Of a DNA stretch of 43,998 nt, positions 2,271 to 43,692 are shown one piece after another (positions within the stretch are counted from its first letter, which is position 1; every line of letters starts with the position of its first letter). Origin of the DNA: a virus. Its lineage: Duplodnaviria; Heunggongvirae; Uroviricota; Caudoviricetes. The translations under genes were made by a program, and so were the position numbers. The stretch is taken from IMG/VR virus record IMGVR_UViG_2671180473_000007; one strand, written 5' to 3'. The notes under the pieces are model-generated. The model made no database searches, was not told where the DNA came from, and was given only the letters and a program-made list of their open reading frames with translations.

Positions 2271-2963
2271 TTACGTAACATCAAACGCTCTAATTGTTCC
2301 CAAATCCTCCAGACCACTCAGCTCCTCTTTCATTTCACGCTGACGGCGATAAATCTCATCGTTGCGATCGACCTGCGCCTGCACCATTGCTGCCGCCAGT
2401 TCTTCCAGTTCCGGCATCGACAGTTTCACCTGCTGATTATCGGCATCNNNNNNNNNNNNNNNNNNNNNNNNNNNNNNNNNNNNNNNNNNNNNNNNNNNNN
2501 NNNNNNNNNNNNNNNNNNNNNNNNNNNNNNNNNNNNNNNNNNNNNNNNNNNNNNNNNNNNNNNNNNNNNNNNNNNNNNNNNNNNNNNNNNNNNNNNNNNN
2601 NNNNNNNNNNNNNNNNNNNNNNNNNNNNNNNNNNNNNNNNNNNNNNNNNNNNNNNNNNNNNNNNNNNNNNNNNNNNTTCCATTCAAACGTGAACGGCTTC
2701 GCCTCCTGTTCTGTGCGCCATGCTTCAATTTCCTGACGTCTGGCCTCTCTGGCCGCTTCCAGCATTTCTGGTGTCACAGTGAATGGGGCTATCTCACCCC
2801 ATTTGCCACTTTGCAGTTCCTGCCAGATTCGCTGACCCGTCGGTGCGACATCATCAGCGGTGGCTGTGTAGGGGACTGCCTGGTCCCTGTCGTCAAAAAA
2901 AACGTCACAGTCTACTGCGCCACTTTCGGTATAACGGGGATTAATGATTTTTTTAATTTCCAC
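2271..2963 (-). CDS. Phage tail fibre assembly protein (Tfa-like), interrupted by an assembly gap
   Basis: ORF track 2271..3023; lies directly downstream of a side-tail-fibre gene. Start trimmed to GTG at 2963 (GAGGAA 6 nt upstream, coupled to the stf stop). Contains a run of N, so true length is unknown. Confidence 0.55.
   Translation of the reverse strand: MEIKKIINPRYTESGAVDCDVFFDDRDQAVPYTATADDVAPTGQRIWQELQSGKWGEIAPFTVTPEMLEAAREARRQEIEAWRTEQEAKPFTFEWXXXXXXXXXXXXXXXXXXXXXXXXXXXXXXXXXXXXXXXXXXXXXXXXXXXXXXXXXXXXXXXXXXXXXXXXXXXXXDADNQQVKLSMPELEELAAAMVQAQVDRNDEIYRRQREMKEELSGLEDLGTIRAFDVT
2447..2676. other. Run of ~230 N (assembly gap or masked sequence)
   Basis: Literal n characters in the sequence; translated as X in overlapping ORFs. 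Confidence 0.99.
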
Positions 2964-2973
2964 GGTGCATTCC

Positions 2974-4146
2974 TCACGATGTGCGAATAAAAAGCCCGGG
3001 CATTGCGCCAGAGACATGAGCATCCGGCACCCCGGACAGGGCGCAATATGACCCCGGTAATGAATGCTCTGAACATCCCGTAATGAAAAATTGTGGGGAT
3101 GCTATATACGTTCCGGTGGGAGTACTGGGCACTGAAATCCCCACCGGTCCCAGTCGTGAGCCTCTGTATGACTGCCCCCTGACAAGTCTGATGACTTTAT
3201 CACCGTCAGCTTCTCCCTGGTACGCAGCAATAATCAGCCCGCCAATGTCAGGGTCTCCCCATCTGTTGCAGACAGAGCTCGCCACGATTCTGTAAATAAT
3301 ATCTTCTGTGGTTATATTTATTTTCACCCAGCCAGTCAGTCTGGATATGGGCCAGTAGCAGTAGCGGGTGTGATAAATGGGGCCGTTAATGCCGTAAAAA
3401 GTAAGGGATTTGGCTCTGTACCTCGGTTCTGTTGTCTCAGGGCGTGCATCAGTCCACCGGATGCTGAGCACCCCTTCAAACCGTGTGTCGGGTATGATGA
3501 TGTCGTAGGGGCCAGCAACGGAATATTCACCTGGCAGCGCATTCCTTACCCAGGCCAGGAAATCACTCTTAGTGTCAAAACGGATAACATCTTCAGGCAG
3601 AAAAGCACACCCAAAGCCGAATGCGCCGGGTATCGCCAGACGGCCTTTTGTCCGGTCGTAAATGTCGCTCTGTGCTTCCATCGTGGCCGCACTTTTCAGC
3701 CCCAGATTATCCCGGGACTTCTGTTGTGCCTTTTCGCCTGCTGCTGCGATTTCAGACAGATGGTTAGCCGTTTTCAGAGTGCCGGTCAGCGCAGCATCAA
3801 TGTCATTTTTGGCCTGCTCTGCTGCGCGGGCATAACCTGCGGCTGCCGCCACATCCTGCGCCGTCTGCTGTGCGTTTCCGGCTGCGGCCCCGGCGCTCTG
3901 CTGCGCCTGCGCCACCATTTCCTCAAAGCGTTTGACGACATCCGGTTTCAGGTCGCCCTCATCAGGAGCAATCAGAAAGTCATTCAGCGTGCCGGGCTTT
4001 GAGTCGTCGTATACAGCAATGTCGCCAACGTTGTACTCGTTGTGCCAGCCCGGTTTCAGATACACACCATATTTTCCAGTCCGCGCATGGAAACAGTATT
4101 CACCATCGTTTCCTGTCATCACATCAGCAACAGTGTGCATCACCAC
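2974..4146 (-). pseudogene. Lambda Stf-like side tail fibre protein, apparently 5'-truncated
   Basis: 390-aa ORF with YDDSKPGTLNDF...RFEEMVAQA motif resembling the N-terminal region of lambdoid Stf. Frame is open upstream to 4203 without an RBS and runs into the IS66 terminal repeat at 4163, suggesting ~20 N-terminal codons were lost. Confidence 0.6.
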
Positions 4147-4162: not shown

Positions 4163-4744
4163 GTAAGCGTGCAGCAAGAACCGTATTGACGGGAATGTGT
4201 TATTCAGTCGGCAGTGCTACGCGCCAGGGGAGCAGTTCGCCGACCCGGTTTATCGGCCAGTCGGCTATGACGTCAAGGACATAGCGGAGGTAGCTTTCTG
4301 GCTCCACTCCGTTCAGTTTGCACGTCCCGATCAGGCTGTACAGCAGCGCTCCCCGCTCTCCTCCATGATCCGAACCGAAGAACAGGTAGTTTTTGCGGCC
4401 CAGACTGACCATCCGCAACGCATTTTCAGCGATGTTATTGTCCGCCTCAGCCCAGCCATCATCTGCATAGTACGTCAGCGCCGGCCACTGGTTCAGGGCA
4501 TATGCGAACGCTTTCGCCAGTTCTGAGTGTCGCGACAGGGTTTTCATCTTTTCACGCAGCCAGCTTTCCAGGGATTTCAGCAGCGGTTTCGTTTTCAACT
4601 GACGTTCGGCAAGGCGCTGTTTCAGCAGGAAGATGTCGTCAGAAGAGATGTCGTTCATAAGCCCGTATTTTACCGGGCTTATTCTGTGACAACCAGGATA
4701 AAGAGATTTACAGCATGGTCAGGGAGGTCAGCAGCCGCTTAGGC
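4163..4744 (-). mobile_element. IS66-family element, right-end fragment (terminal repeat plus 3' part of tnpC)
   Basis: GTAAGCG at 4163-4169 (IS66 ends typically start GTAA) lies ~37 bp beyond the tnpC stop. Inner boundary with the Mu-like end is uncertain (4660-4760). Confidence 0.6.
4200..4658 (-). pseudogene. IS66-family transposase TnpC, C-terminal fragment
   Basis: 152-aa ORF with ALNQWPALTYYADDGWAEADNNIAENALRMVSLGRKNYLFFGSDHGGERGALLYSLIGTCKLNGVEPESYLRYV, characteristic of the IS66 TnpC C-terminus; roughly 370 N-terminal residues are absent. Confidence 0.8.
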
Positions 4745-4765
4745 TGTCTATAGCGCGGCGATTTT

Positions 4766-4831
4766 TTTGATACCGATTTGCATTTCATTTGATACCGCTG
4801 AAAAACGCCGATACGCAACTTATTTGATACT
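4766..4831 (+). repeat. Mom-proximal (attR-like) end: three clustered ATTTGATACCG-type repeats, putative transposase binding sites
   Basis: tttgataccga (4766-4776), atttgataccg (4787-4797), atttgatact (4822-4831); close spacing resembles Mu R1-R3. Confidence 0.6.
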
Positions 4832-4876
4832 AAATCGGCGCTTTTCTTTTGAGTTTTAGAATGAGTTTTTAAGCGT

Positions 4877-5614
4877 TCATTCACTCTCTTTCAAACCAGT
4901 TTTAACTGTTTGTGGTTTTGGGTAAGGCTGGACTTTGAATAGCTTTGTGTTAAGGCGTTTTCTGGCTCTCTTGTCCAGAAACCGGATGTAACGAAACTGA
5001 CGGAATTTATGAACACTGGCTCTGTCGATATTAGCCCGCAGATGTTCACCTCGCTGTCCTCCTCGTTTGATTGCATTCTTGCAAATCTCGTGATACCACT
5101 CGCCATCAAGTTCATAGAATGTTGTTTCATGACTGCCTACATAATCAAAATTGCTTGCCTGGTACACGACACCAAGACAGCCACAACGCTCATCTGCAAA
5201 CGACTGAACCCACTGCACCTGCGGATAAAGTTGTCTGATTAGTTTGAGCGCGTAACTGATTGCCCTTGATTCGGAGTTTCTCGGCATACAGTCATGCAGC
5301 CATAACCGGTTAAGCTCCATATATTCGCGGTTCTGCGTGCCAGTTACGACGCGTGCACCATTGTTTGGATTAAGGGCATAACCCCATTGCATTACGCCAA
5401 CCAGCTCCCGTTCTGAAAATATGCCCAGATGAAGGTAGGAATTATTTACGAAACGATGGCTGTAATGTTTATTGACGACGACCAGCCGGGCCAGCCAGCA
5501 ACTTATTGTCTCAACCCGTAACTCACGGGAGCCATAACCGACGATATTGTCGTTATAGTGAATAAGTTCAGGCGTGCTGATGATACGGGATGTAACTTGC
5601 TTTCTGTTCCCCAC
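4877..5614 (-). CDS. mom: Mom-like DNA modification protein (assignment by position)
   Basis: ORF track 4877..5809; lies immediately downstream of and overlapping a Com-like zinc-finger gene at the phage end, as in Mu. Start set to GTG at 5614 (AAGGAA upstream, just 5' of the com stop). No family motif recognised directly. Confidence 0.5.
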
Positions 5615-5768
5615 GACAGGATTTCCTTGTGTATGTGGGGTGCTCTGTGGCGCTCTGAGATGTGATTTGATTGAGGGTTTTACAGCGCGGACATTTAACT
5701 TCCAGATAACTGAAGCTGGCTCGTGCCAGTAGCTTGTTACAATGTCGGCACCGTATGTTTCGATACAT
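5568..5768 (-). CDS. com: Com-like zinc-finger translational activator
   Basis: ORF track 5568..5813 trimmed to ATG at 5768 (GGAGG 9 nt upstream); [35 protein letters not shown] has the CxxC...CxxC pattern and resembles Mu Com as I recall it. Confidence 0.7.
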
Positions 5769-5789
5769 GGCCGCATAACCTCCTGCTTT

Positions 5790-5840
5790 GTTGTTGATAT
5801 CTTTATCACTCAATCGATCGACAAAAACGATCGATTTGAT
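5790..5840 (-). promoter_or_regulatory. Putative com-mom promoter regulatory region with clustered GATC (Dam) sites
   Basis: GATC at 5816-5819 and 5829-5832 within nested atcgatcg palindromes, ~50-65 bp upstream of the com start; Mu Pmom is controlled by Dam methylation of upstream GATC sites. Confidence 0.4.
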
Positions 5841-6024
5841 TTATTTAATTGATACAACAAATAACACGAAATGTCATTAGCGAAAATTTATGAGTTTGAT
5901 CACTAATTTTAAACGGTGCTGTAACGCATAAGTGCTGAATGATTGTACATTTGAATACCGCAAAGCAAACAAATCAACTAATTTATAGAAGTCAATTGGT
6001 TAATTGCCAGCGTAAGAGGCTGCT

Positions 6025-6318
6025 ATGGACAATCATGTAACGACGAGAAATCGAAAAATGATTGAAAATGCGGAAATCTATAATGATTATTTTTCCGATT
6101 ATTCAGATGCCTGCAAATACAGTTCGAGTGCGGGAGAGTTCATATGCTTCAACTTTTTTATTAAATCTTATGTTTTTCCTCCACAGCAAGAAGATGGAGG
6201 TGTGCCACCTCCTGAAATCACTTTGCACCGTATAGCCTCCGTCTCAATGATGGAGCAACAGGCTAATGAGCTGTATAGCATTCTGGGAACGATTCTACAA
6301 AAGCGTGAATCGGACTAA
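6025..6318 (+). CDS. Hypothetical protein (97 aa) in AT-rich island, opposite strand to phage genes
   Basis: ATG with AAGAGG 7 nt upstream; sits in a markedly AT-rich block (~5820-6480) unlike the GC-rich backbone. No recognisable motif. Confidence 0.4.
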   Translation: MDNHVTTRNRKMIENAEIYNDYFSDYSDACKYSSSAGEFICFNFFIKSYVFPPQQEDGGVPPPEITLHRIASVSMMEQQANELYSILGTILQKRESD

Positions 6319-6485
6319 TGATACCGGTTCATTTGCCTGCCCGGATGGGGAAGCAGGATTGACTGCTCCATAAGCAGCTATATTTCTGAATACGAAATAC
6401 TATCCAGCGATTACATATGGCTGGATAGCGGCAAAGATGTTTTCATTAGTGTCAAACCGGCAGAGGACACCACCGGTTTGTATTG

Positions 6486-6740
6486 TTACATCATGGTACT
6501 GTCAGTTCCGGGCTGAGCCGGGTCTGGTTGCTCTGGCTGCGCGTCGGTTTTCGGCTCATTATCAGCATCACTGGCCGCAACTGCTGGCCCAATAAGTTTT
6601 GCCAGCACTTCATCAACGTAAGTGTCGATTTGTGCCTCAAAATCCTTGCGGACCTGCGCTTTCAGCAACTTATTTACTTCACCGGAATACAGTGCCTGTT
6701 TTACCAGGTCTTCAGTGACGGTGCCTTTAATTTCTGGCAT
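6486..6740 (-). CDS. Hypothetical small acidic protein (84 aa)
   Basis: ATG preceded by perfect AGGAGG at 7-nt spacing; acidic, Pro/Asp/Glu-rich C-terminus. Confidence 0.55.
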   Translation of the reverse strand: MPEIKGTVTEDLVKQALYSGEVNKLLKAQVRKDFEAQIDTYVDEVLAKLIGPAVAASDADNEPKTDAQPEQPDPAQPGTDSTMM

Positions 6741-6775
6741 GTATATCCTCCTTATGCGGGAATAAAGCCCTGCAA

Positions 6776-6958
6776 TCAGGGCTGGGTCGGGTCTTTTGGG
6801 AGCGGAGTTACCTGCGCTGTTTTACTGAGTTTTTCAGCTGCTGCGTCCTCAATTTTGCGGCGAACATAATTTCTGATGGCCTTATAACCACCACTCACCA
6901 GATATAACGCACATACTGCCGTGCAGAAATACAATAAAATAAGCTGTAAAAATGTCAT
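6776..6958 (-). CDS. Hypothetical small membrane protein (60 aa, one N-terminal TM helix)
   Basis: ORF track 6776..6970 trimmed to ATG at 6958 (GGGAGGG upstream): MTFLQLILLYFCTAVCALYLVSGGYKAIRNYVRRK, hydrophobic helix then basic region. Confidence 0.55.
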   Translation of the reverse strand: MTFLQLILLYFCTAVCALYLVSGGYKAIRNYVRRKIEDAAAEKLSKTAQVTPLPKDPTQP

Positions 6959-7054
6959 TATCCCTCCCAATTATTGACATGGTGTTGACACCGGTAATAT
7001 CTGTTAGGTAAAAAGGTGCACTGCATTTTTTGCTTTGGATATAACGATCTTTTT

Positions 7055-7097
7055 GCCGCCGGTTTCTTGTTTTCCCTTACCGGCGGCATTTTTTTAT
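7055..7097 (+). terminator. Canonical rho-independent terminator, plus-strand orientation
   Basis: 9-bp perfect GC-rich stem gccgccggt/accggcggc (7055-7063/7079-7087) followed by atttttttat; T-run only on the plus strand although flanking genes are minus-strand. Confidence 0.5.
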
Positions 7098-7102
7098 CCT
7101 GC

Positions 7103-9157
7103 TTACGCGTTATTCACTTCCACCACGATACTGTCAATCAGTACCGGGTAAGTCGCATTTTTAGTGATATCGGTCACGCGCAACTTGTCTGCCGTAAACG
7201 TGCCGACCGGAGACTGCGACAGCATGAATGGTGTCCCGTCCTTACCATCAATGACCGGCGTCACCTCAATACTGTTGTTACCGGCAAAACGGAAGCCCAG
7301 CGTATGCCATTCGTTATTAAATGCGCCGAATGACCCCAGCTTCGTGTTCTGCGCCGTGTTTCCTTTGTGATACATCACGTTAAGGTCTGTGGCATCGCTC
7401 TGTACGTAGAACGATGCCAGCAGGTTATGACCGGCATTTCCTTCCAGAGTAACCCCTTGCGGCAGGGCAGAAACCGGCCAGTACAGCGCCAGTGCGTACT
7501 GATTAGCCGTAAGCGCGCCATCGAGTTTAAAACGACAACTGACAAGACCACCTTTACCCAGCAGGTCCGCACCATTACCAGCATCATGCTCAAGGTACCA
7601 GGGGGCTCTTCCTGTTTCCTTGGTCAGTTTCATTGCCTTACCCCCGCTGGCTCCGGCATCATCCACGATTTGAGCCTTGCCACCTCCGGCAGCCCAACCC
7701 TGTGGTGTCAACCGTCCTTCAGACTCAGATGCCCGGTAAGCAAATAGCGTACTCATCGTCGTGGTGTCTGCGGGTGGCGTGGACGGTTTTGATGGTGTAT
7801 CAGGTGACGGCTTCTCATCCGGTGGTGTCACGGTCTGCCCACGCATCAGTTCAGCCGTGCGCCCTGCATGGAGCATAATAGCTGAGGCCAGACGGTCTGA
7901 AATGACGCCCCTGCGTGCCCATGAGCTGAAATGGCTGTCACGCTGTGTCGAAACAAAACTGCCCTGGGTTCGGGATGCTGCACCGTAATACCCGACAGCC
8001 ACAATATCCGGGTCTTCCGCCGGAGCATTCGTTGGCGTGCTCTGTCCATTCTCATCCGTCAGGAACGGTACAAAGAAAATTTTCTGTGCTTCCTTGCCTT
8101 TGTAGCCACCGTATACTGCCTCATATTTATCGGTGCCAGCGTTTTTCCAGTAATACGTGGTATCACCGCAAATCCACGGCACCGTGGTGGCATTTCCACT
8201 CACGCACTGCGCAGCAAGCGGAGCCAGGTCAGTTCTGAACTGCTGAACCATGGCCGTGAATAAACTATTATGCTGCTGGCTTCCTGAGGCAAGGTCTGCC
8301 TCTCCCTGCATCCAGACCACAGCCAGAAGTTTGTTTTTCGGGTTTTTCGCCAGCGCGACTTTGGTGCGGCTTACCAGGTCCTGATACAGAGGTTTACCGG
8401 CCCCCCAGCGTGAAGAATCAGCGGAAGCACCGCTGGCCTCACTGAATGAGCCGTCGGCTCCAGTGGTGAATGCTGACCCGCCACGACAACAGGGCACCAG
8501 AAGTATCCCGGCATTCTGTGGGATATAGGGAAGCAGTTTTTTGGCAATATGCAACCCCTGACCGACAGTCCCGTACTGGCCTTTTGCCAGATCAGCTTTC
8601 GGGTGGTTTATCCCGCTCATATCCTGAACATCATGCAGGCAGTGGTCTGCCGGAATGATGTCGTTGTATGTACACGACGTACCGTTGGGCGTTACCGTAC
8701 TGCGGCGTGCCAGTTGCTTAATGCGTGGGTCCGGGCGGTCAAACGAATCCGGTAACGGCAGCCCCTCGCCGTAGGCCATGCCATTTGACTGACCCGCGAG
8801 AATGACAACAAAGTAATATTCCGGCTCTGAACTGCTGCCATTCGTGCTACCGGAAGGCCCGGCGTTATCCGGTGCATTCCAGTCGGAGGGCGTGAGCGTT
8901 CCGGCCACGTCAGATGTGATTGGAATGATGCCAGTCACGCCTGAACTGGTGATTTCTGCACTGGGATTACCGGATACCGGCATTACCCATAATGGCTCTT
9001 TCGTGCTGAAGCGGATCACGCAGTCTGCGAAGGTGATCCCCCCTTTATTACCCGAAGGGCGGAAAGGGCTTTCAATAAATGCCACCGTGCCACCGGCAAC
9101 CTTGACTGAAAACTCTCCGGGCATGGCGGAGAGCATTTTCCACTTGGAGTCTGACAT
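7103..9157 (-). CDS. SASA/SGNH-family carbohydrate esterase (prophage NanS-p-like sialate O-acetylesterase candidate) with C-terminal lectin-like domain
   Basis: 684-aa ORF; VILAGQSNGMAYGEG resembles the GQSNM catalytic block of sialate O-acetylesterase-type domains, with WMQGEAD and DHCLHD further on. Sits between gin and mom, where Mu has no gene. Confidence 0.6.
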   Translation of the reverse strand: MSDSKWKMLSAMPGEFSVKVAGGTVAFIESPFRPSGNKGGITFADCVIRFSTKEPLWVMPVSGNPSAEITSSGVTGIIPITSDVAGTLTPSDWNAPDNAGPSGSTNGSSSEPEYYFVVILAGQSNGMAYGEGLPLPDSFDRPDPRIKQLARRSTVTPNGTSCTYNDIIPADHCLHDVQDMSGINHPKADLAKGQYGTVGQGLHIAKKLLPYIPQNAGILLVPCCRGGSAFTTGADGSFSEASGASADSSRWGAGKPLYQDLVSRTKVALAKNPKNKLLAVVWMQGEADLASGSQQHNSLFTAMVQQFRTDLAPLAAQCVSGNATTVPWICGDTTYYWKNAGTDKYEAVYGGYKGKEAQKIFFVPFLTDENGQSTPTNAPAEDPDIVAVGYYGAASRTQGSFVSTQRDSHFSSWARRGVISDRLASAIMLHAGRTAELMRGQTVTPPDEKPSPDTPSKPSTPPADTTTMSTLFAYRASESEGRLTPQGWAAGGGKAQIVDDAGASGGKAMKLTKETGRAPWYLEHDAGNGADLLGKGGLVSCRFKLDGALTANQYALALYWPVSALPQGVTLEGNAGHNLLASFYVQSDATDLNVMYHKGNTAQNTKLGSFGAFNNEWHTLGFRFAGNNSIEVTPVIDGKDGTPFMLSQSPVGTFTADKLRVTDITKNATYPVLIDSIVVEVNNA

Positions 9158-9233: not shown

Positions 9234-9262
9234 AAAAAAGCGTCACGGTACTTTTGGTGACG
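9234..9262 (-). terminator. Rho-independent terminator at the 3' end of the invertase gene
   Basis: Stem cgtcac/gtgacg (9241-9246/9257-9262) overlapping the invertase stop, followed on the minus strand by a U6 run (plus-strand aaaaaa 9234-9239). Confidence 0.45.
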
Positions 9263-9815
9263 GAGCTGGTGAGGCAGGAAAATAACGATAAAGGGTGGAA
9301 AGGCCAATATCAAATATCAGTGCGATTTGTTTACGGGACTCGCCATTAGCCAGCAAACGGGCGATTTGCTCCCGCTCTTTCTCTGTCAGTTTCTGAGGTC
9401 TGCCGCCATGACGCCCCTGAGCACGGGCAGCAGCAAGACCCGCGCGTGTACGTTCAATAATGAGTTCCCGCTCCATTTCCGCCAGCGCGCCCATTATATG
9501 GAAAAAGAAACGTCCCATGGGAGTGGATGTATCAATATTGTCCGTAATGCTGCGGAAGTTAACGCCGCGTTGCCGGAGTTCTTCTGTTAAAAGGACAAGG
9601 TGCTGCATACTGCGTCCAAGGCGATCCAGTTTCCAGACCAGCAGGGTATCCCCTGGCCGGAGTCGCTTTAATGCGCGTTTAAGTCCGGGACGCTCCCTTG
9701 TCTTACCGCTTATTCTGTCTTCGAAAAACAGCTCACATCCTGCACATTCCAGCGCATTTCTTTGTAGCGCCGTATTCTGGTCATTTGTTGACACCCTGAT
9801 ATACCCAATCAGCAT
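9243..9815 (-). CDS. gin: Serine-recombinase DNA invertase (Gin/Pin/Cin/Hin family)
   Basis: 190-aa ORF MLIGYIRVSTNDQNTALQRNALECAGCELFFEDRISGKTRERPGLKRALKRLRPGDTLLVWKLDRLGRSM..., near-colinear with Mu Gin as I recall it; adjacent to a gix-like site and the invertible segment. Confidence 0.93.
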   Translation of the reverse strand: MLIGYIRVSTNDQNTALQRNALECAGCELFFEDRISGKTRERPGLKRALKRLRPGDTLLVWKLDRLGRSMQHLVLLTEELRQRGVNFRSITDNIDTSTPMGRFFFHIMGALAEMERELIIERTRAGLAAARAQGRHGGRPQKLTEKEREQIARLLANGESRKQIALIFDIGLSTLYRYFPASPAPSPKVP

Positions 9816-25804: not shown

Positions 25805-25925
25805 ATTGCCTCCGCATAAAGGATGAATATAAAATAAACAGGCGGTCAGTGTACGCTTAACTGGTAAAGTCGGTGCCTGCCTCCGGGTGGATCATGTATG
25901 CGGGTTCGACCCCCGCCACTGACCG

Positions 25926-33386: not shown

Positions 33387-33809
33387 TCAGAAAAGCCGTG
33401 GCTGCGTGCGTTCCTGATGCAGGCGACGCTGGTTGCGGATAACGGAGTAAATCTGCGTCTCTGACATCTGGTAGTGGCGGCGCAGGGTTTCAATTTTTTC
33501 GCCCTGGCTCCAGCGGGAAAAAATTTCATTATTGCGCAGTTCGGTGAAAAGGGATTCACCGACCGGGAGATAATAACCACGCCCGCCCATGTACCCGGCC
33601 TGTGCGGCTGCAACCTTACGGGCAAGCATTCCCGCCTGAGCAGGTTCAATCCCCTGACGGTGCAGTTCAGCACTGATCACATCAACCAGGTCCCGCAGCG
33701 TGCCGGGCCAGTTCTTTTTCAGCTCATCATCAGGAATATCATCCAGACGGTCAATCAGCGCGTGCAGCTGTTCGCTGTCACCAAACATGCTCATCTGTGT
33801 TTCAGCCAT
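33387..33809 (-). CDS. Mor/C-family transcriptional activator (late-gene activator candidate)
   Basis: 140-aa ORF with C-terminal HTH-like region ...LRRHYQMSETQIYSVIRNQRR, directly upstream of the lysis genes. Confidence 0.7.
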   Translation of the reverse strand: MAETQMSMFGDSEQLHALIDRLDDIPDDELKKNWPGTLRDLVDVISAELHRQGIEPAQAGMLARKVAAAQAGYMGGRGYYLPVGESLFTELRNNEIFSRWSQGEKIETLRRHYQMSETQIYSVIRNQRRLHQERTQPRLF

Positions 33810-43371: not shown

Positions 43372-43692
43372 CCTGGTTATATGTCGCCAGTCGATACCTT
43401 CCAGCAGCATCGCCAGCTGCGCCTGTGTAAGGAACACTTTGCCATCACGGGCTGACGGCCAGGCGAAGCGCCCACGCTCCAGCCGTTTGGTCAGGAGGCA
43501 CAGTCCGTCACTGGTGGACCACAGCAGTTTAACCTGACTGCCGCTGCGGCCCCGGAAAATGAAAACATGGCCGGACATGGGATCGTCTTTCAGCGCCGTC
43601 TGTACTTTCGCAGCCAGGCCGTTGAAGCCATTTCTCATATCGGTGATACCGGCAACCAGCCAAATTTTGATCCCGGAAGGTAACGGGATCAT
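43369..43692 (-). CDS. IS66-family TnpB (Orf2)
   Basis: 107-aa ORF with WLVAGITDMRNGFNGLAAKV...GHVFIFRGRSGSQVKLLWSTSDGLCLLTKRLERGRF, characteristic of IS66 Orf2; its stop abuts the phage terminus. Confidence 0.8.
   Translation of the reverse strand: MIPLPSGIKIWLVAGITDMRNGFNGLAAKVQTALKDDPMSGHVFIFRGRSGSQVKLLWSTSDGLCLLTKRLERGRFAWPSARDGKVFLTQAQLAMLLEGIDWRHITR

Follow-up and report, generated by a model that had tools for sequence, protein, structure and literature searches.

The closest described relative of the locus reported here is the com-mom operon of phage Mu (AF083977, Mu_52 and Mu_53). In Mu, com and mom are the last genes before the right end of the phage genome, and a C/Mor-family activator is encoded upstream of the lysis gene. 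On the Mu mRNA, the hairpin that is the target of Com adjoins a translation-inhibition hairpin, and the GUG start of mom lies within the stem of the latter; the Com recognition motif has been defined as CC-N3-GAG (PMC6483171). The Mom reaction was reconstituted with Gly-tRNA(Gly), and the structure solved, in a 2026 study (PMC13219725). In Mu-like phages such as Sp18, genes homologous to mom and to those of its regulators are located at the equivalent places (PMC3299994), and com-mom is mentioned for Sp18-type phages (PMC3299994; PMC2669165). A second relevant group of systems comprises gtr (phage P22, Salmonella) and agn43, in which GATC pairs 13 bp apart lie within an OxyR dimer half-site (ATAGnTnnnAnCTAT). 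In gtr, the proven Dam-sensitive OxyR half-sites contain GATC pairs with this spacing, Dam methylation blocks OxyR, and one of the pairs overlaps the promoter (PMC2909390).

The window analyzed here, a 43,998-nucleotide stretch of viral DNA from IMG/VR, contains a module, carried by a Mu-like transposable prophage, that is very probably orthologous to the com-mom operon of Mu and operates by the mechanism set out below. The gene identities, their overlap, the catalytic residues, the RNA motif and hairpins, the conservation of an upstream GATC pair and the position at the prophage end are all read directly here. The prophage spans 38.6 kb (4749–43381) and, as in Mu, com-mom forms its terminal unit, with mom ending 128 bp short of the right end; the first-pass annotation had described the 245-residue gene as terminal, in agreement with a prophage end at 4749. 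The right-end segment (4749–4876), directly downstream of mom, contains three TTTGATAC repeats that are putative transposase-binding sites. Three copies of this repeat are present at each prophage end in opposite orientation, and seven were found where one is expected. The boundary is seen at 4748/4749, where homology to other insertions, and to ISEc8, breaks off. The DNA between 4749 and 6000 recurs with 99.8–100% identity in 226 complete genomes of E. coli, inserted at many different places in the chromosome, and a homologous stretch is labelled as an inserted Mu-like phage in two Stx phage records. The window copy has inserted into an IS66-family element, with a degraded prophage alongside that adjoins ssrA, and a search of 5,426 complete genomes did not find its exact insertion junction. 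Gene order throughout the prophage is of the Mu type with mom last, and ~3.4 kb of other genes lie between the invertase gene and com. As in Mu, a gene for a Mor/C-family late transcription activator (33387–33809, minus strand; 140 residues) is located just upstream of the lysis gene; its product is equal in length to Mu C, shares 40% identity with it over 136 residues, and is a candidate trans-activator of com-mom.

The mom gene (4877–5614, minus strand) starts with GTG, codes for 245 residues and is the last gene of the prophage; RefSeq lists the same protein, with the same coordinates, as WP_000528246.1. The gene had at first been called by position only. A profile search places its product in the Mom family over its full length rather than in any unrelated family: the match to PF25680 covers profile positions 1–202 of 202 (E 1.6e-77; 260.2 bits against a cut-off of 27.1; Pfam), and PHROG 1384, ‘Mom-like DNA modification protein’, is matched with an E value of 6e-83. 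The protein is 78% identical to Mu Mom over 233 residues (E 5e-140), matches the Mu Mom crystal-structure sequence (PDB 8BV8; E 2.4e-123), and differs from Mu Mom in carrying two extra N-terminal and 12 extra C-terminal residues. Pairwise alignment with Mu Mom shows that all nine activity-critical residues are kept. The essential residues R111, S124, D149 and R151 (PMC13219725) correspond to R103, S116, D141 and R143 of the window protein, and the residues that are also needed, W48, H58, Y59, Y159 and W181 (PMC13219725), correspond to W40, H50, Y51, Y151 and W173. The underlying offset of +10 in Mom numbering was deduced from an ATG that precedes the annotated GTG of Mu mom by 30 nt and, as a second basis, from the 232-residue delta-10 crystal chain. 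Activity also needs an HTH-like insertion in the GNAT fold at approximately residues 175–209 (PMC13219725), and residues 167–201 of the window protein, which form this insertion, align to Mu Mom without gaps. By homology, the mom product is predicted to be a GNAT-fold adenine-modifying enzyme, a tRNA(Gly)-dependent adenine aminoacyltransferase. A mechanical listing of open reading frames gives a 310-residue frame (4877–5809, minus strand) that encloses mom with its GTG at 5614. The corresponding long Mom isoform would include the 65 open codons that precede the GTG, beginning at an ATG located 8 nt ahead of that of com. It was considered and rejected: the open stretch is only 27 codons in a 97%-identical relative and 6 to 74 elsewhere, and the upstream ATG sits 2 nt from the Shine-Dalgarno sequence.

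The com gene (5568–5768, minus strand, ATG at 5768) codes for a 66-residue CCCC zinc-finger protein (RefSeq WP_014334043.1). That a Com-like zinc-finger gene overlaps the start of the 245-residue gene had been proposed in the first-pass annotation, and is borne out by a match to PF10122, Zn_ribbon_Com (Pfam; E 7.5e-13; score 48.2 bits, cut-off 22.9), and by 45% identity to Mu Com. Com has four zinc-ligand cysteines (PMC3299994); those of the window protein, C7, C10, C27 and C30, align to C6, C9, C26 and C29 of Mu, and its sequence includes VKCPRCK. The two genes overlap by 47 nt (5568–5614), compared with 50 nt in Mu. A Shine-Dalgarno sequence, AGGAGG (5779–5784, minus strand), is read 10 nt before the com ATG; in the short-form relatives described below its core, GGAG, is unvarying, and CAGGAGG is present in eight of nine. 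Homology suggests that Com acts as an RNA-binding translational activator of mom.

Two RNA hairpins are identified at the start of mom. The Com-target hairpin (5640–5653, minus strand), GCGC-CACAGA-GCAC, is the gap-free homolog of Mu AUGC-CUGCGA-GCAU, and the Com recognition motif is found within it as CCACAGAG at 5643–5650 (CC-ACA-GAG in RNA). The adjacent translation-inhibition hairpin (5609–5640, minus strand) is formed by CCCCAC (5635–5640) and GUGGGG (5609–5614), the latter including the mom GUG (5612–5614). It is the counterpart of CCCAC...GUGGG in Mu, to which the window aligns without gaps, and it is present in both the MFE and centroid folds; in the predicted fold the mom Shine-Dalgarno sequence, AAGGA (5624–5628), is paired inside its loop. 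A Com-binding stem-loop had been suggested near 5600–5640, and can now be located at 5609–5653 with the backing of covariation. When 12 distinct relatives are compared, changes on both sides are seen at three of the four pairs in the Com-target stem. In the inhibition stem every cell (100%) is paired, with a change of the closing pair from U-A to C-G, and shifted-register controls collapse. One position, alignment column 18, covaries with a partner in each hairpin, the second partner being located at the base of the inhibitory stem; this pattern fits a switch between mutually exclusive pairings. The hairpin sequences fall into few clades and therefore represent few independent events, and the folding z-scores of the region are modest, between -1 and -2. 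The Com-target stem of the window lineage differs from that of Mu by one C.A mismatch, so that just two of its four pairs form in the predicted fold; an otherwise identical variant has U-A at this position. Rfam holds no family for the com-mom leader, nor for the leaders of com-less mom genes. These comparisons add covariation support to the two-hairpin Com switch, including the nucleotide common to both stems.

A mechanism can be proposed for the module as a whole. During late lytic growth, a single transcript from upstream of com would span both com and mom, and on this mRNA the ribosome-binding site and GUG start of mom would be locked in the inhibitory hairpin. Com would bind CC-N3-GAG in the adjacent small hairpin, which has one nucleotide in common with the inhibitory stem, and the start of mom would thereby be opened for translation. 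Mom would then transfer glycine from Gly-tRNA(Gly) to adenine residues of double-stranded phage DNA at N6; rearrangement of the adduct would give N6-carbamoylmethyl-adenine, and the packaged DNA would be shielded from many host restriction enzymes. Because Mom is toxic, transcription is expected to be gated as well, and the GATC pair upstream of com may be a Dam-sensitive protein site, bound in Mu by OxyR, that represses when unmethylated. We infer the enzyme activity, the activation by Com and the anti-restriction function by homology, and control by Dam and OxyR, like the identity and position of the promoter, is proposed on the basis of the sequence comparisons that follow.

The two Dam sites lie in a perfect inverted repeat, AATCGATCG-N7-CGATCGATT (5812–5836), a candidate Dam-sensitive OxyR half-site. 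The GATC sequences occupy 5816–5819 and 5829–5832, and each is nested in overlapping ATCGAT and CGATCG palindromes. They start 51 and 64 nt before the com ATG, in keeping with the ~50–65 bp given in the first-pass annotation, and they are homologous to sites in Mu. The pair aligns to Mu AATCGATC-N9-GATCGATT with a start-to-start spacing of 13 bp in both phages, and the flanks that match Mu, CAATTAAAT...CGATCG...GATCGATT, mark the two sites as homologs of Mu sites 2 and 3, which in Mu are likewise spaced by 13 bp within an inverted repeat. Among 33 distinct com-upstream sequences drawn from genomes and viral contigs, 26 have the 13-bp spacing, including relatives in which the surroundings are otherwise unalignable. 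The window contains eight GATC pairs no more than 15 bp apart, so that the spacing alone is within chance, and as a whole it has fewer GATC sites than expected (132 against 170); the pair is judged non-random on the strength of its homology to Mu and its recurring spacing, not of the spacing by itself. A third GATC, at 5898–5901, is no homolog of Mu site 1. The latter site is positioned at the 3’ end of gin in Mu and has been lost in the window, where gin is not adjacent and the upstream sequence is different. Two other roles for the repeat were considered. It is flagged as an intrinsic terminator on the plus strand, which we treat as incidental since no plus-strand gene runs into it and the conserved element is the GATC pair; and binding by the late activator was rejected, as the region upstream of the lysis gene contains neither GATC nor a similar repeat.

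Comparison of the region between the GATC pair and com reveals where the window departs from Mu. The com-proximal GATC is separated from the com ATG by 51 nt in the window and by 78 nt in Mu, and the 27 bp that are absent comprise the C-box, poor -35 element and T6 run of Mu. The first-pass description of the overlap between com and mom as exactly that of Mu therefore holds at the coding and RNA levels and fails at the level of the promoter, where two of the three Mu GATC sites are kept, 27 bp nearer to com, and there is no Mu C-box. A search of 5769–6024 for the C-box TTAT-N6-ATAA gave no match with one mismatch allowed. The Mu C-box TTATgccccaATAA is unrecognizable in the window, and the ATAACC box, the T6 run and the TAAGAT -10 of Mu are not recognizable between the GATC pair and com. 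No consensus sigma-70 promoter was found on the com-mom strand, as expected if the promoter is activator-dependent. Candidate activator boxes were also sought in the late regions (lysis, protease and baseplate), where common ATATTCC, ATTCCCC and ATATCCCC-like motifs resemble Mu ATAAcCCC. A weak look-alike, ATATCAACA, is present upstream of com, but its position would place the -10 element inside com. A search with CATAACCCC gave no more matches than chance.

With ~33 nt between the com-proximal GATC and the com Shine-Dalgarno sequence, the promoter must overlap the GATC pair or lie upstream of it, and the Mu layout, with the promoter downstream of the pair, is geometrically impossible. The shortened region and missing C-box imply that the Dam-sensitive site either overlaps the core promoter or sits in the leader; together with the lack of a consensus promoter, they indicate that the transcriptional scheme of Mu is not simply transferable. 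The short form is not a private deletion. It is represented by 14 distinct sequences, compared with 11 of the Mu-like long form, and occurs in E. coli, Edwardsiella and uncultivated phages.

These observations raise the possibility that the same enzymes are served by rewired transcription, in which the OxyR-type half-site is placed over the -35 element and spacer, not upstream of a C-box, methylation gates RNA polymerase directly, as in gtr or agn43, and C-dependent recruitment is absent or located elsewhere. We consider this possible, though it is not the account that we favor. The 51-nt spacing and the geometry that it imposes, the prevalence of the short form and the outcome of the C-box search are each in its favor, as are the mere 40% identity of the C homolog to Mu C and the precedent of the gtr pair, with its 13-bp spacing, that overlaps a promoter (PMC2909390). 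In diverged short-form relatives, moreover, a -10-like hexamer, TATACT or TATAGT, is kept 7–9 bp downstream of the GATC pair. The putative -10 element in the window, GATAAA (5802–5807, minus strand), aligns with TATACT, TATAGT and GATAGA in short-form relatives; however, it lacks the key T6, close relatives have GAGAAA, and a sigma-70-like ATGACA-17-TATCAA upstream of the pair would instead put the GATC repeat in the leader. Of these two placements, we take coverage of the -35 and spacer region by the Dam-sensitive site to be the likelier one for the com-mom promoter in this lineage. The more general proposal, that there is a widespread short-form control region in which the C-box has been lost and a Dam-sensitive OxyR-type half-site lies directly on the core promoter, is doubtful and is offered tentatively. 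Were it true, mom would be gated by the methylation state of its promoter, as are the gtr and agn43 switches, and its expression may not depend on the late activator, or may vary between individual cells.

Set in register with the OxyR dyad ATAG-N7-CTAT, the GATC pair of the window has the sequence ATCG-N7-CGAT. Its geometry equals that of the GATC pairs in the proven OxyR half-sites of gtr (PMC2909390), and its score against the two-half-site OxyR consensus is 13/20, equal to that of Mu; the consensus is weak, with 15-mers scoring at least 7 occurring at 1.7 per kb per strand. The resemblance of the window pair to an OxyR site is suggestive only. Alternatively, the pair may be an inherited relic, with control exerted by the late activator and Com alone. 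In favor of a relic are the weak OxyR match, the loss of one of the three Mu sites, the replacement of the upstream half of the Mu OxyR-protected region by unrelated sequence, and the fact that the window has several other GATC pairs as tightly spaced. It is nonetheless unlikely, since the pair and its 13-bp spacing are invariant in short-form relatives despite almost fully diverged flanks, the arms of the repeat are 9 bp long compared with 8 bp in Mu and hence more symmetric, and the com and mom coding sequences are free of GATC, the nearest site on the mom side being at 4367. Least probable of all, and in our view highly unlikely, is the chemistry proposed earlier for Mom, a ‘methylcarbamoylation’ that depends on acetyl-CoA and iron, in place of glycyl transfer from tRNA(Gly), for although PMC7261163 reports binding of acetyl-CoA and Fe by Mu Mom and earlier RefSeq names of the same protein follow that model, the reconstitution with Gly-tRNA(Gly) and the structure (PMC13219725) argue against it, as does the current RefSeq name, which follows the Gly-tRNA(Gly) model, the window sequence itself being unable to discriminate between the two.

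The reading that we prefer, an operon orthologous to com-mom of Mu, describes a system that is already known and is named in public annotation and in the literature. Reading of the raw sequence sufficed to recognize it correctly, and a textbook Mu anti-restriction operon has little discovery value in itself. Relative to Mu, the window is alike in gene order, in the placement of the mom GTG in the inhibitory hairpin and in the CC-N3-GAG motif. In RefSeq, E. coli prophages contain identical proteins with the same gene limits, annotated as ‘tRNA(Gly)-dependent adenine aminoacyltransferase Mom’ and ‘Com family’, and these annotated Mu-like prophages differ from the window in insertion site alone.

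Comparisons with more distant systems delimit what is particular to this operon. First, in FluMu (HI1523), Pnm1 (NMA1821), Hia5 and phage B3, Com is likewise directly upstream of an anti-restriction adenine-modifying gene at a Mu-like right end (PMC3299994). However, the enzyme in these cases is an AdoMet-dependent m6A methyltransferase unrelated to Mom, whereas the window encodes a true Mom. Second, Mom proteins without Com, examples being those of Aeromonas phage pAEv1818 and of many loci of Yersinia and Serratia type, are full length and 62–70% identical to that of the window. Their loci contain neither a Com open reading frame nor the GATC pair, with mom preceded by an antiterminator Q gene or by another, also conserved, leader, and their regulation therefore differs. 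Third, gtr and agn43 have the GATC spacing of the window, but these systems use two or three half-sites to bring about heritable ON/OFF switching of a bacterial surface trait. The window has one clear half-site and a weak neighbor, and its mom, unlike gtr and agn43, is a lytic-phase phage function for which no phase variation is known. The sole non-trivial finding is the short regulatory layout, a variant of the known scheme. Operons of the com-mom type show two regulatory layouts, the long one as in Mu and the short one as in the window, and the latter provides a test case for Dam and OxyR acting directly at the promoter of a toxic phage gene.

Many Mom homologues at 62–70% identity are encoded at loci with neither com nor the GATC pair, the two Dam sites that precede com in the Mu-like prophage and in phage Mu. 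These com-less loci (L013–L016, L019 and L072–L105 among the relatives compared) share a conserved leader in the ~110 nt upstream of mom, which contains a GC-rich hairpin, gccccggaaag...ctccggggc, and additional blocks such as ggtcacgagtacacc and ttattggagtac. No Rfam family matches this leader. In Aeromonas phage pAEv1818, mom follows the gene for antiterminator Q. The leader looks like a different, so far unstudied way of controlling this toxic enzyme. Two other relatives, L005 and L008, also have com-less mom loci, yet they retain a cluster of three GATC sites that includes the 13-bp pair; the Dam-site cluster can therefore be maintained in the absence of com. In L005 the cluster lies directly 3’ of a gin-like invertase gene, as it does in Mu.

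The RefSeq product name for com (5568–5768), ‘Com family DNA-binding transcriptional regulator’, is misleading because Mu Com has been characterised as an activator of translation that binds RNA (PMC6483171). Upstream of com in the close relative L043, the AACAAC repeat that separates the com Shine-Dalgarno sequence from the GATC pair is expanded (caacaacaacaacaaag), which moves the pair from −64/−51 to −70/−57. With this expansion, the presumptive promoter or leader is polymorphic in length. The dyad of the Mu C-box, TTAT-N6-ATAA, has a single perfect match in the window (TTATGCGGGAATAA), at 6752–6765, within the 35-nt gap from the DUF1378 gene to the DUF826 gene. Read on the gene strand it is TTATTCCCGCATAA, which is similar to ATATTCCGCA, a motif upstream of the lysis gene.

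An 80-nt tRNA-like sequence, matched by the Rfam tRNA model, is present on the plus strand at 25845–25924. It is antisense to the phage genes, with virion-morphogenesis and minor-head genes on either side. The match scores 31 bits against a gathering score of 29, under permissive filters only; the sequence has good acceptor and T arms and an excess of 6 nt in the anticodon-arm region. ARAGORN makes no tRNA call at this position, and RefSeq labels the sequence tRNA-OTHER. Its presence in one phage with Mom, an enzyme that uses Gly-tRNA(Gly), is a curious co-occurrence only.

The first 4748 nt of the window are host and older mobile DNA, including smpB (1013–1495), tmRNA (1710–2072), a degraded prophage with genes for a tail fibre and tail-fibre assembly, and an open reading frame at 2271–3023 with an internal run of N (~190 codons). 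A truncated IS66-family transposase gene (4200–4658) is the insertion target of the Mu-like prophage, whose termini lie at 4749 and 43381. The IS66-family flanks, 4744–4748 and 43382–43386, have only the 4 bp TGTC in common, and a clean 5-bp target duplication was not found there. The prophage ends, TATAGCG... and TATAACC..., differ from the TG...CA ends of Mu. Another difference lies between the invertase gene (9243–9815, minus strand) and com, which are separated by ~3.4 kb of cargo (6025–9157): a divergent 97-aa open reading frame (6025–6318, plus strand), the small DUF1378 and DUF826 proteins, and a 684-aa DUF6645 protein (7103–9157, minus strand). In Mu, by contrast, the interval from the invertase gene to com holds no cargo.
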